A stretch of 64,000 nt of DNA, from the NCBI RefSeq assembly GCF_030013205.1, contig NZ_CP122648.1; one strand, 5' to 3'. The notes under the pieces were generated by a model. The model did not search any database, was not told the DNA's origin, and worked only from the letters and a program-made list of their open reading frames with translations. This DNA is from Escherichia coli (GTDB lineage Bacteria; Pseudomonadota; Gammaproteobacteria; Enterobacterales; Enterobacteriaceae). Numbering within the stretch: position 1 is the first letter of the stretch; each line of letters begins with the position of its first letter. Made by a program: the position numbers and the translations under genes. Of this stretch, positions 19,919 to 23,223 are shown piece after piece.

Positions 19919-20339
19919 GCTTCGCCCGGCCACGCAGTACGATACCGACGCAGTTTACGCGCTGATTTGTGAGCTAAAACAGGCGGAGTTTGACCACCAC
20001 GCGTTTCGCGTGGGCTTTAACGCCAACCTGCGCGACCCGAACATGCGCTACCATCTGGCGCTGCTGGATGGCGAAGTTGTCGGCATGATCGGCCTGCATT
20101 TGCAGTTTCATCTGCATCATGTCAACTGGATCGGCGAAATTCAGGAATTGGTGGTGATGCCGCAGGCGCGCGGTCTGAATGTCGGCAGTAAATTACTGGC
20201 ATGGGCAGAAGAAGAAGCCCGCCAGGCCGGGGCCGAAATGACCGAGCTTTCCACCAACGTCAAGCGCCACGACGCGCACCGTTTCTATCTGCGCGAAGGC
20301 TATGAGCAGAGCCACTTCCGCTTCACCAAGGCGCTGTAA
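19905..20339 (+). CDS. phnO: Aminoalkylphosphonate N-acetyltransferase PhnO (GNAT)
   Basis: 144 aa GNAT-like ORF overlapping phnN 3' end by 14 nt. Confidence 0.92.
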
Positions 20340-20340
20340 C

Positions 20341-21099
20341 ATGAGCCTGACCCTCACACTTACTGGCACTGGCGGCGCACAGGGCGTTCCCGCATGGGGC
20401 TGTGAGTGCGTGGCCTGCGTCAGAGCGCGGCGCTCACCGCAGTATCGCCGCCAGCCATGCAGCGGCGTCGTGAAGTTTAACGACGCGATCACCCTGATCG
20501 ACGCCGGGCTGCACGATCTCGCCGATCGCTGGTCGCCCGGATCGTTCCAGCAGTTTTTGCTGACGCACTACCATATGGATCACGTGCAGGGGCTGTTTCC
20601 GCTGCGCTGGGGCGTGGGCGATTCGATCCCGATCTACGGCCCGCCGGATGAACAGGGCTGCGACGATCTGTTTAAACATCCGGGCCTGCTTGATTTCAGC
20701 CACACGATGGAACCGTTTGTGGTGTTTGATTTACAGGGGTTACAGGTCACGCCCCTGCCGCTCAACCACTCAAAACTGACCTTCGGTTATCTGCTGGAAA
20801 CGGCACATAGCCGGGTGGCGTGGCTGTCTGACACCGCAGGCCTACCGGAAAAAACGCTGAAATTTTTACGCAATAATCAACCGCAGGTGATGGTGATTGA
20901 TTGCAGCCACCCACCGCGCGAGGATGCACCGCGTAATCACTGTGATTTAAATACCGTGCTTGCGCTGAATGAAGTTATCCGCTCGCCGCGCGTGGTTCTG
21001 ACCCATATCAGCCATCAGTTTGATGCGTGGCTGATGGAGAACTTACTGCCGTCAGGGTTTGAGGCGGGGTTTGATGGGATGGAGATTGGGGTGGCGTGA
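20341..21099 (+). CDS. phnP: Phosphoribosyl 1,2-cyclic phosphate phosphodiesterase PhnP (metallo-beta-lactamase fold)
   Basis: 252 aa from ATG 20341 ([15 protein letters not shown]...), HYHMDH metal-binding motif; 1 nt after phnO stop. Confidence 0.93.
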
Positions 21100-21126
21100 G
21101 GGAAAATACCCGCGCCGGCCCCTATA

Positions 21127-21456
21127 TCAACGCCCATACTCATCTTCCATTCTCCGCTCTTCATCTTCTAGCTGCCGACGCTCCTGATCAAGCTGGCGCT
21201 GGCGATCGTCCAGCTGCCTGCGGCGATCTTCAAACTGGCGGCGGCGATCGTCATATTGTCTGCGCCGATCGTCGTTCACTTCACGCTGCCAGCCGTCGTC
21301 GCGCGAATCTTCATAGTCTCGCCCACGGTCAGGGTTATAAGCATCGTTAATCGCCTGCTGAATATTGCCAATGGTGTCGTCGATAATATCGGCCTGGGCC
21401 GGAACGGTGGACAGCGTGAGCAGGGTGAATAAAAGAAATAGCGGAAAGCGTTTCAT
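21127..21456 (-). CDS. yjdP: Secreted low-complexity Arg/Asp/Gln-rich protein YjdP
   Basis: 109 aa with signal peptide (MKRFPLFLLFTLLTLSTVPAQA) followed by heptad-like repeats DDRRRQY/DDRRRQF/EDRRRQL...; convergent with phnP. Confidence 0.85.
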   Translation of the reverse strand: MKRFPLFLLFTLLTLSTVPAQADIIDDTIGNIQQAINDAYNPDRGRDYEDSRDDGWQREVNDDRRRQYDDRRRQFEDRRRQLDDRQRQLDQERRQLEDEERRMEDEYGR

Positions 21457-21524
21457 TAGCCAACCTCAAAAAGAAACTCTATCCACATTAGTCATTACTC
21501 ATCCATGCAAGTAGTGGATGAATC

Positions 21525-21974
21525 TCAATTTCTCCGCTGCTCTATTGCCGTAATCGCCTCCACGCGTTGTTGATGACGACCGCCTTCGTACTGCGCGCCC
21601 AGCCACGCATCCACAATCATTTTTGCCAGTTCGAGGCCAACCACTCGTGAACCAAAAGCCAGCACGTTGGTGTCGTTATGCTGCCGCGAAAGTTGCGCGG
21701 AATAAGGTTCGCTACAAACGACCGCGCGAATTCCGGCAAACTTGTTCGCCGCTATCGAAATACCGACGCCAGTGCCACAAATCAAAATCCCGCCATCAGC
21801 CTCTCCGCCAGCAACGGCCAGTGCGACTTGACTGGCGTAATGCGGATAATCAGTACGCTCTGACGACCAGGTTCCTTTATCAATCACTTCAACGCCACGC
21901 TCAACTAAATGTGCCACTATTTCATGTTTTAAAATGAAACCGACATGATCACAGCCAAATGCAATCTTTTTCAT
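21525..21974 (-). CDS. rpiB: Ribose-5-phosphate isomerase B / allose-6-phosphate isomerase
   Basis: 149 aa MKKIAFGCDHVGFILKHEIVAHLVERGVEVIDKG... RpiB/LacAB fold. Confidence 0.95.
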   Translation of the reverse strand: MKKIAFGCDHVGFILKHEIVAHLVERGVEVIDKGTWSSERTDYPHYASQVALAVAGGEADGGILICGTGVGISIAANKFAGIRAVVCSEPYSAQLSRQHNDTNVLAFGSRVVGLELAKMIVDAWLGAQYEGGRHQQRVEAITAIEQRRN

Positions 21975-22332
21975 TCATCTTCCCCGCCCGCGCAAAAATT
22001 CACAATCAAAAAACATTTGTGATGTAAATGAATTAAAAACACCCAAAATCTATGAAATCCGCCTTCCAGATCTGTTTTACAGAGTTACATCTGACAGCGC
22101 AATAGCGTTAAAGACACTCACTATCCAGCAACATCTATCATCTAATAAACCAGGAAAACAAATAACATAATGTTTTTAAAGTGATTAAATGAAATGAAAT
22201 TTTAAGCCACTCTCCGTTATTCACAACAAAACAAACTTTATAAATTTTATTTTTTTGTGAAGTTGACAGCATCTTTTCTGTTCTTGCTGTGGTGATATAG
22301 TGGCGTCTTCAATTCAAGGACAAGAGAACGTG

Positions 22333-23223
22333 ATGAGCCAGTCAGAGTTTGATTCAGCGCTTCCGAACGGTATCGGGTTAGCGCCTTACCTGCGAATGAA
22401 GCAGGAAGGAATGACAGAAAACGAAAGCCGCATCGTGGAGTGGTTACTCAAACCCGGTAACCTGAGTTGTGCACCCGCAATTAAAGATGTCGCAGAAGCT
22501 CTGGCGGTATCTGAAGCGATGATAGTTAAGGTATCAAAGCTGCTGGGGTTTAGCGGCTTTCGTAACTTACGCAGTGCGCTGGAAGATTATTTTTCTCAGT
22601 CAGAACAGGTATTGCCTTCCGAGTTGGCTTTTGATGAAGCGCCGCAGGATGTGGTGAATAAGGTATTTAACATCACTTTACGCACCATTATGGAAGGTCA
22701 GTCGATCGTCAACGTTGATGAGATCCACCGTGCCGCCCGCTTTTTCTATCAGGCCAGACAGCGGGATTTGTACGGTGCCGGAGGATCAAATGCTATCTGT
22801 GCTGATGTACAGCACAAGTTTTTACGCATTGGCGTACGCTGCCAGGCCTATCCGGACGCTCACATCATGATGATGTCTGCTTCGTTGTTACAGGAAGGAG
22901 ATGTGGTGCTGGTGGTGACCCATTCCGGGCGAACCAGTGATGTAAAAGCGGCTGTAGAACTGGCAAAAAAGAACGGGGCAAAGATTATTTGTATAACGCA
23001 TAGCTACCATTCACCGATAGCGAAGCTGGCCGATTATATTATTTGCTCACCGGCCCCGGAAACACCGTTATTAGGTCGTAATGCCTCGGCAAGAATATTA
23101 CAACTAACTTTGCTGGACGCGTTTTTTGTCTCTGTCGCCCAGCTCAACATTGAACAAGCTAATATTAATATGCAAAAAACCGGCGCAATTGTTGATTTCT
23201 TCTCACCAGGCGCGCTGAAATAA
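22333..23223 (+). CDS. rpiR: RpiR/AlsR transcriptional repressor (HTH + SIS domain)
   Basis: 296 aa from ATG 22333 (MSQSEFDSALPNGIG...); divergent from rpiB across a ~360-bp AT-rich region. Confidence 0.92.
   Translation: MSQSEFDSALPNGIGLAPYLRMKQEGMTENESRIVEWLLKPGNLSCAPAIKDVAEALAVSEAMIVKVSKLLGFSGFRNLRSALEDYFSQSEQVLPSELAFDEAPQDVVNKVFNITLRTIMEGQSIVNVDEIHRAARFFYQARQRDLYGAGGSNAICADVQHKFLRIGVRCQAYPDAHIMMMSASLLQEGDVVLVVTHSGRTSDVKAAVELAKKNGAKIICITHSYHSPIAKLADYIICSPAPETPLLGRNASARILQLTLLDAFFVSVAQLNIEQANINMQKTGAIVDFFSPGALK

Follow-up and report, generated by a model that had tools for sequence, protein, structure and literature searches.

The 21-bp repeat of Escherichia coli yjdP is probably the coding footprint of an ancient heptad, and strain-to-strain length differences lie in the signal peptide

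The yjdP gene of Escherichia coli contains a run of imperfect 21-bp units that encode a highly charged protein. We asked whether this run is a slippage-prone minisatellite whose unit number varies between strains, as the initial annotation of the locus proposed, or the imprint of a protein structure held in place by selection. In the stretch of DNA that we analyzed (the window, 64,000 nucleotides), yjdP occupies 21127..21456 on the minus strand and encodes 109 amino acids followed by a stop codon. The ORF listing, a match to the NCBIfam profile NF041443 and the RefSeq annotation of an identical sequence agree on this assignment, and the gene name, strand and translation given initially were correct. 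The gene lies between phnP (20341..21099, plus strand), the final gene of the phosphonate operon, which is convergent with yjdP, and rpiB (21525..21974, minus strand), which is located upstream on the same strand as yjdP across a 68-nt gap; both neighbors were assigned from the ORF listing and RefSeq, in the case of phnP from the annotation of matching records. A spacer of 27 nt (21100..21126, from the ORF listing) separates the stop codons of yjdP and phnP, and we found no terminator-like site within it. The length of this spacer differs from strain to strain. In BL21 it is 146 nt and contains a GC-rich G-tract hairpin element, and the distance from phnP to yjdP exceeds that in record L001 by 119 nt. 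A search of Rfam with positions 20000-23000 matched no family.

Read in codon phase on the minus strand, the array consists of five canonical 21-nt units at 21169..21273: DDRRRQY (21273-21253), DDRRRQF (21252-21232), EDRRRQL (21231-21211), DDRQRQL (21210-21190) and DQERRQL (21189-21169). These units are supported by Tandem Repeats Finder, translation, AlphaFold2 and dN/dS. Two degenerate terminal heptads and the stop codon follow at 21127..21168 (EDEERRM, 21168-21148; EDEYGR plus stop, 21147-21127), as judged from translation and from a predicted helix that extends to residue 108. The full 109-residue protein, on the minus strand, reads MKRFPLFLLFTLLTLSTVPAQA up to the predicted cleavage site and then DIIDDTIGNIQQAINDAYNPDRGRDYEDSRDDGWQREVN-DDRRRQY-DDRRRQF-EDRRRQL-DDRQRQL-DQERRQL-EDEERRM-EDEYGR. 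The array had first been placed at 21172-21276, coordinates that describe these units with a 3-nt shift. Tandem Repeats Finder reported a period of 21 with 4.1 copies and 77% matches over 21188-21273, and also gave a period-42 reading. At a lag of 21 nt, 58 of 84 array positions are identical (69%), a value reached by none of 1000 codon shuffles, whose maximum was 46 when the whole coding sequence was shuffled and 49 when only the charged C-terminal half was. Similarly, the lag-7 identity of the protein (27/46) was reached by 0 of 10,000 shuffles. These data confirm that the 21-bp periodicity is real and far above chance, and the description of about five consecutive imperfect in-frame units was borne out by Tandem Repeats Finder, translation and shuffles alike. 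At the nucleotide level, exact identity between units, enumerated by script, extends over 8-10 nt at most, the units differ from each other in their Arg codons, and a repeat-family search with a seed of 8 returned no families.

The heptad repeat was already catalogued, because YjdP belongs to NF041443, an equivalog family named "DDRRRQL repeat protein YjdP" after the repeat itself. The window protein scored 147.4 bits (E 1.2e-43) against this profile, above its 90-bit cutoff, and residues 1-103 aligned with profile positions 1-101 of 101, making it a full-length member. RefSeq annotates yjdP under this name in 5,404 of 5,426 complete E. coli genomes. The 21-bp repeat is therefore a known object that is written into the official protein name, and as first described it holds very little significance. 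The Pfam family PF28054 (YjdP) was precomputed on all homologs listed, including a 98%-identical protein, and our local Pfam-A scan of the window protein returned no such family. Members of NF041443 and PF28054 share with the window protein a signal peptide, a DIIDDxIGNIQQAINDAY motif and the heptad block, with no structural difference; alignments show this architecture in orthologs from Escherichia, Citrobacter, Buttiauxella, Cronobacter and Entomohabitans. Searches of Pfam-A, PADLOC and PDB sequences with YjdP produced sub-threshold coiled-coil noise only and turned up neither a solved structure nor a match to any further family, and full-text literature searches for the YjdP repeat, its identifiers and the repeat DNA found nothing relevant. 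The family is small and confined to a few genera of Enterobacteriaceae; a set of 1.84 billion proteins yields 51 representatives at 50% identity, many of them fragments. Its named sources are Escherichia, Shigella, Citrobacter, a Klebsiella sp. MAG, Buttiauxella, Cronobacter dublinensis and Entomohabitans, and at least six further genera have orthologs. As in E. coli, yjdP borders the phn/yjdM region in Citrobacter, Buttiauxella, Cronobacter and Entomohabitans. Its orientation relative to this region is always convergent, which argues for synteny rather than co-function.

If the array were a slippage-prone, in-frame minisatellite, serving as a contingency or antigenic-variation locus, strains should differ appreciably in unit number. 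We surveyed 5,404 complete E. coli records with a 174-nt query spanning the repeat region. At least 80% of the query was covered in 5,387 of them, and the full-length spans that we sampled were all exactly 174 nt. A gapped 21-nt indel would lower identity to 88-89% over this query, and no record aligned at less than 90%, excluding such indels. Heptad number therefore differs in at most 17 of the 5,404 records (~0.3%). Sixteen of the 17 records with lower coverage carry a single divergent 102-aa allele (P0040/L011), and the remaining one (L015) has a 72-nt deletion that removes 24 aa and leaves an 85-aa product. The wider protein collection contained 7-aa deletions with three distinct junctions, each yielding 102 aa (P0040/P0030; P0025/P0062, from Shigella boydii; and P0028), a 14-aa deletion yielding 95 aa (P0112), and one E. 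albertii protein (P0037) in which a 14-aa (42-nt) duplication yields 123 aa. These rare variants are several independent, in-register events. We rejected proteins of 123-184 aa as candidate heptad expansions; they are stop-loss, frameshift or alternative-start artefacts.

Variants in unit number thus exist, as had been suggested, but they are confined to a very small fraction of complete genomes. The strongest points for a minisatellite are that at least five independent copy-number variants can be counted (102 aa with three junctions, 95, 85 and 123 aa) and that the 102-aa P0040 allele is widespread, with 2,561 blocks indexed in a large public collection. This allele is, however, an old, divergent haplotype (87% identity) and not a product of recurrent slippage. 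The two hallmarks of a hypermutable repeat, near-perfect units and common copy-number differences within a species, are both absent from the 21-bp array, in which the longest exact repeat is 10 nt and units are 69% identical at lag 21. Because the units have only short exact identities and different Arg codons, heptad number changes rarely. Taken together with the history of the array described below, these findings make the minisatellite explanation highly improbable.

The age of the array was apparent from comparisons between genera. Most E. coli, E. fergusonii and Citrobacter proteins have seven heptads in total and are 109 aa long. Orthologs at 38-60% identity are 104-118 aa long and have the same heptad block; these are from the Klebsiella sp. 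MAG, Buttiauxella, Cronobacter and Entomohabitans, together with unnamed metagenome proteins. Between E. coli and Citrobacter farmeri, both with 109-aa proteins, the heptad part (residues 62-109) had a dN/dS of 0.037 at a dS of ~1.6, as compared with 0.084 for residues 23-61 and 0.10 for the whole gene. In this pair, units 1, 4, 5, 6 and 7 were more alike as orthologous copies than as paralogous ones, and orthologous units have drifted apart in their synonymous codons, so there is no concerted evolution. From these comparisons, the heptad array is older than the divergence of these genera, shows no homogenization and is under strong purifying selection. The phrase "prone to slippage" was therefore an overstatement: the array is old, diverged and kept unit by unit. 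We conclude that the 21-bp units represent a structural heptad that has been conserved, and that the array is not a contingency locus.

The same substitution pattern refutes the idea that yjdP is not a genuine protein-coding gene, a concern raised when the locus was first described. There is no promoter-like site directly upstream, and two weak terminator-like matches lie inside the repeats on the plus strand, both of which could be read in favor of a non-coding element. However, the dN/dS of the whole gene, an ORF that is intact in nearly all of the 5,404 genomes, the orthologs in other genera, the lack of an Rfam match and the induction of yjdP in published RNA-seq (PMC5105897) all oppose it, and we give this idea almost no credence.

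Annotated YjdP proteins nonetheless do differ in length among E. coli genomes, with lengths of 112, 115, 118 and 121 aa among those that occur. Alignment revealed that the extra residues of the longer proteins are all in the signal peptide, as added Leu-Phe-Thr triplets. The strain-to-strain differences in yjdP length (106-139 aa) stem from this 9-bp repeat and not from the 21-bp array. This repeat had gone unnoticed. In the window allele, the corresponding sequence comprises four degenerate 9-bp units, CTATTTCTT TTATTCACC CTGCTCACG CTGTCCACC, encoding LFL LFT LLT LST at 21406..21441 on the minus strand, and CFT073 has the same protein sequence as the window in the LFT LLT LST region. These imperfect units are the stable precursor state of the perfect Leu-Phe-Thr repeat. 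On one haplotype, two C-to-T changes generate perfect 9-bp CTGTTCACG (Leu-Phe-Thr) units. This haplotype is marked by S61, E84 and Q94, by the phnP protein WP_000052746.1 and by the rpiB protein WP_000716792.1. It is present with 6 copies in the ST131 reference strain JJ1886 and with 12 and 8 copies in records named O25b:H4-ST131, and accounts for ~540 of 5,405 records (542 at ≥99% identity). The Leu-Phe-Thr repeat falls outside the coordinates first reported for the 21-bp array and is not active in the window allele.

On this single haplotype, with the same phnP and rpiB proteins throughout, copy number ranged from 2 to 13, giving 12 alleles with a mode of 6-7. Six copies formed the most frequent class in systematic samples and seven the second, a ranking that is rough. 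Shorter alleles were represented by P0121 (2 copies), L014 (3), L002 (4), and L010 and L013 (5). Among the longer ones, 8 copies were found in 19 records, 9 in four records, 12 in three, and 10, 11 and 13 in one record each (L027 for 13). We searched with a synthetic 11-copy allele as the query, so that the longest alleles ranked first, and identity bands were not used as allele counts, as they are confounded by truncated perfect alignments. Isolates within one study differ from each other: the Gothenburg set (CP107xxx) contains alleles with 4, 6, 7, 8 and 9 copies. An exact look-up of synthetic 2-11-copy alleles in a collection of 15 billion proteins found only the 2-copy allele; 4-7-copy alleles that exist in RefSeq came back absent, and a cluster in that collection contained N-terminally truncated "partial" proteins and alternative starts inside the repeat. 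Since that collection is unusable for allele counts, complete genomes were used. Short-read assemblies break within the repeat and leave partial proteins (P0123-P0129), and PGAP sometimes places the start codon inside it (L027). With perfect units and many alleles in one lineage, the ST131-haplotype 9-bp repeat has the features of a hypermutable repeat. Full-text literature searches returned no report of it. The signal-peptide repeat of ST131 is a real hypervariable locus, and apparently an unreported one.

The hydrophobic core of the signal peptide spans 12 to 45 residues across these alleles, compared with 15 in the window allele, the value for 13 copies being obtained by the same counting. 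A longer h-region can turn a cleavable signal peptide into a signal anchor (review of signal-peptide prediction, PMC6589146), and long alleles may therefore alter the location of YjdP. A tentative and rather doubtful extension of this idea is that the repeat acts as a slippage-driven, in-frame localization switch, in which the products of long alleles would stay uncleaved with the rod tethered to the inner membrane, would depend on SRP for insertion, or would be blocked in export. If so, the repeat would modulate a protein of the envelope-stress response in pandemic ST131, a lineage that dominates clinically. At minimum, it would give ST131 a new typing marker of high resolution, and its alleles form a natural series for relating hydrophobic-core length to export in vivo.

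What structure do the heptads specify? By inspection, YjdP begins with a Sec-type (SPase I) signal peptide, as had been noted before the repeats. It covers residues 1-22 (21391..21456, minus strand) and reads MKR / FPLFLLFTLLTLSTV / PAQA: an MKR n-region, the 15-residue hydrophobic core FPLFLLFTLLTLSTV, and PAQA followed by D, with cleavage predicted between AQA and D. Ortholog alignment supports the site: full-length orthologs from other genera retain small residues at -3 and -1 (A-x-A) followed by D, which one ortholog replaces with N. YjdP is accordingly predicted to be a small Sec-exported protein with a mature form of 87 aa. The conserved N-terminal segment of the mature protein, DIIDDTIGNIQQAINDAYN (21334..21390, minus strand), is evident from alignments and the dN/dS of 0.084 for residues 23-61, and overlaps an AlphaFold2 helix at residues 18-40 that was modelled with modest confidence. 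The segment is a predicted amphipathic helix in which I25, I29, I32, I36 and A39 follow a 4,3,4,3 spacing. It is followed by an acidic, low-confidence linker, PDRGRDYEDSRDDGWQREVN (residues 42-61; 21274..21333, minus strand), defined from the AlphaFold2 model, which is without secondary structure at residues 41-52 and has pLDDT values <50 at residues 46-49. This linker is indel-prone in variants P0063, P0050 and P0010.

For the heptad part, AlphaFold2 (16-sequence alignment) predicted a single continuous helix of ~55 residues, at 53-108, with pLDDT 88-96, in line with one of the two outcomes foreseen for this protein, a single charged helix or disorder. The extreme charge remarked on initially is also evident: 66% of residues 57-109 carry a charge, and their net charge is -1. 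Within each heptad, two acidic residues precede three basic ones, generating dense i to i+3/i+4 salt bridges. We counted 37 attractive i+3/i+4 pairs in residues 57-109, compared with 22 ± 3.5 in shuffled sequences, none of which (0/10,000) reached 37, and only 4 like-charge, repulsive pairs. The charge fraction and low sequence complexity of this half could also describe an intrinsically disordered polyampholyte in which the periodicity is merely a relic of duplication, and structure predictors tend to over-predict helices in such sequences. However, the order acidic-acidic-basic-basic-basic-Gln-hydrophobic has been conserved at a dS of ~1.6 with a dN/dS of 0.037, which composition alone would not need, the attractive pairs lie 4 standard deviations above shuffles, and the pLDDT values are high. 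We therefore consider disorder improbable.

A further possibility, and the main alternative, is that the heptads form an oligomeric coiled coil. Each heptad contributes one hydrophobic residue (Y68, F75, L82, L89, L96 and M103), and these residues are aligned along one face. A dimer, trimer or tetramer assembled through this Y/F/L/L/L/M seam would make a periplasmic rod like Lpp or the arms of Skp. The strict 7-residue spacing of the seam is consistent with such an assembly, as are the invariance of L89 in the family and the invariance or near-invariance of Y68, the canonical 4,3,4,3 hydrophobic spacing of the N-terminal helix, and weak sequence matches to tropomyosin, the N-terminal region of RNase Y and FlbB. 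JGI labels on some orthologs point the same way ("Skp family chaperone" and, on one ortholog, "membrane protein involved in colicin uptake"). A seam of this kind is, moreover, atypical for pure ER/K single helices, which have no regular hydrophobic residue every 7 positions. However, each heptad has a hydrophobic residue at just one of its two core positions; the other, at a distance of 3-4 residues, is occupied by Arg in heptads 1-3 and by Gln, Arg or Glu thereafter. YjdP is therefore not a canonical coiled coil, which has hydrophobic residues at both a and d. The intrahelical i+3/i+4 ion pairs form a pattern that stabilizes isolated helices, and the database matches are all far below threshold. 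In its charge fraction, its excess of i+3/i+4 pairs and its long continuous predicted helix, YjdP has the properties of an ER/K helix (SAH). The AlphaFold2 model is a monomer with a pTM of 0.35, so it is silent on packing and self-association. Weighing these points, we regard an oligomeric coiled coil as unlikely, though a serious contender.

Published expression data place yjdP in an envelope-stress setting. In RNA-seq, yjdP was up 9.5- to 10.6-fold on LolCDE inhibition, alongside genes of the Rcs and Cpx regulons, in a paper that refers to the YjdP N-terminus just as a "putative signal peptide" (PMC5105897), and it was 3.5-fold lower upon CsiR induction (PMC5217608). Scans upstream of yjdP for a CpxR site (GTAAAN5GTAAA) and an RcsAB box found none. 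Likewise, no sigma-70-like promoter was found in the 68-nt gap between rpiB and yjdP, where promoter and terminator scans were at background, and yjdP may be transcribed by readthrough from rpiB. Some strains carry a disrupted yjdP, with an IS1 insertion (L009), a premature stop (L004) or frameshift or readthrough variants, indicating that the gene is dispensable at least in these strains.

Collectively, these data argue, with a probability of roughly 80%, that the 21-bp periodicity reflects, at the coding level, an ancient duplication of heptads within the protein, that YjdP is an exported charged helix and that heptad number is held by selection. The functional part of this explanation (export, helicity and a rod role) we infer from sequence features and the predicted model. 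The helix would behave as a charged single alpha-helix of the ER/K type, a stiff, soluble periplasmic rod that would be made under envelope stress, and its length, set by heptad number, may be the property under selection. The narrow hydrophobic seam and the N-terminal amphipathic helix could serve weak self-association or the binding of a periplasmic partner, and the N-terminal 4,3,4,3 segment could pack onto the seam or mediate association. Recombination or slippage at the 8-10-nt identities that units share gives rise to the rare in-register deletions and duplications. On this explanation, YjdP is a clean, small natural case of an exported bacterial helix whose charges follow the single-helix pattern and which is induced by envelope stress. 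Because it is small, charged, exported and helical, and induced in this way, it should lend itself readily to biophysical work and to a knockout phenotype screen.

Several known systems provide a frame for these features. Charged single alpha-helices (ER/K helices, or SAH domains) occur, for example, in myosin VI/X and caldesmon. As modelled, YjdP would resemble them in its very high charge, its alternating acidic and basic blocks, its i to i+4 salt bridges and its long helix. It differs in using Asp, Arg and Gln where they use Glu and Lys, in having a hydrophobic seam, and in being bacterial and predicted to be exported. Periplasmic helical rods include the trimeric coiled coil of Lpp and domain II of TolA. 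Like YjdP, on the predicted structure, these are small or repetitive, highly helical and charged envelope proteins. By contrast, YjdP is without a lipobox Cys, a membrane anchor (in the common allele), an a/d hydrophobic core and detectable sequence homology to either. Finally, coding repeats within signal peptides are found in the Neisseria opa genes (CTCTT) and in human APOB, which has a 9-bp Leu-Ala-Leu insertion/deletion. Like yjdP, these genes have a short tandem repeat placed within the hydrophobic core, and the number of copies varies from one individual or strain to another. The opa repeat is 5 bp and switches the reading frame on and off, whereas the 9-bp yjdP repeat is always in frame and changes core length only; and where APOB has few alleles, 12 were seen for yjdP, from 2 to 13 copies.

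The hydrophobic core of the YjdP signal peptide is encoded by a 9-bp Leu-Phe-Thr repeat (window 21406-21441, minus strand) that is distinct from the 21-bp heptad array. In the window allele this repeat is imperfect and fixed. A perfect CTGTTCACG repeat of 2-13 copies, most often 6-7, was found on the ST131 haplotype of yjdP, carried by the reference strain JJ1886 and by records named O25b:H4-ST131. We identified this perfect-repeat haplotype in approximately 540 of 5,405 complete records, among them the yjdP loci L001, L002, L006, L010, L013 and L021-L027. Across repeat alleles, the signal-peptide core ranges from 12 to 45 residues.

The repeat also leaves its mark on the databases. Numerous YjdP proteins labeled partial have their first residue within it (homologs P0123-P0129), because short-read assembly contigs break off there. 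In addition, PGAP and other callers at times picked a CTG or TTG start inside the repeat, yielding annotations that are cut short. At L027, for example, yjdP is annotated at 343-675 compared to a true start near 256.

Scattered strains have a disrupted or changed yjdP (FLI21, L009; 2018-06-4CC, L004; 2024CK-00535, L015; proteins P0001, P0008, P0014, P0015 and P0029). Among the lesions are disruption of the 5' half by IS1, truncation by a premature stop at codon 46, an in-frame 72-nt deletion, and C-terminal extensions generated by stop-loss or frameshift. The occurrence of such alleles shows that yjdP is dispensable, at least in some backgrounds.

We also found differences on either side of the gene. 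In the window, a 27-nt spacer (21100-21126) separates the stop codons of the convergent genes yjdP and phnP; the spacer is 7 or 15 nt longer in other strains and 146 nt long in BL21(DE3) (L005:401-546), where it contains a GC-rich element with GGGG/CCCC tracts. A putative G-quadruplex-hairpin element has been catalogued between yjdP and phnP in MG1655 (PMC5100583). On the upstream side, a scan of the whole 64-kb window for the CpxR-type motif GTAAAN5GTAAA, allowing up to 2 mismatches, returned no match upstream of yjdP. The motif was commoner in the window than expected (73 matches versus 42 +/- 7 in dinucleotide shuffles), an excess that probably reflects a composition or codon effect.

In O157:H7 and its relatives (yjdP at L007:385-714 and L008:379-708), the signal peptide starts differently (MKRHSTLFLF...) and rpiB is replaced upstream by a hybrid sensor kinase/response regulator, a region that corresponds to genomic island OI167 (PMC10128022). 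Together, the altered start and the swapped neighbor place the island boundary or recombination breakpoint near or within the yjdP 5' end. Entomohabitans similarly has a hybrid histidine kinase immediately upstream of yjdP on the same strand (L019:2085-3917). In this genus and in Cronobacter, Buttiauxella and Citrobacter (loci L016-L019), yjdP still borders the phn/yjdM locus on its outer edge, even where most phn genes are missing; between yjdP and phnP, C. farmeri carries the toxin-antitoxin pair ParE/Phd.
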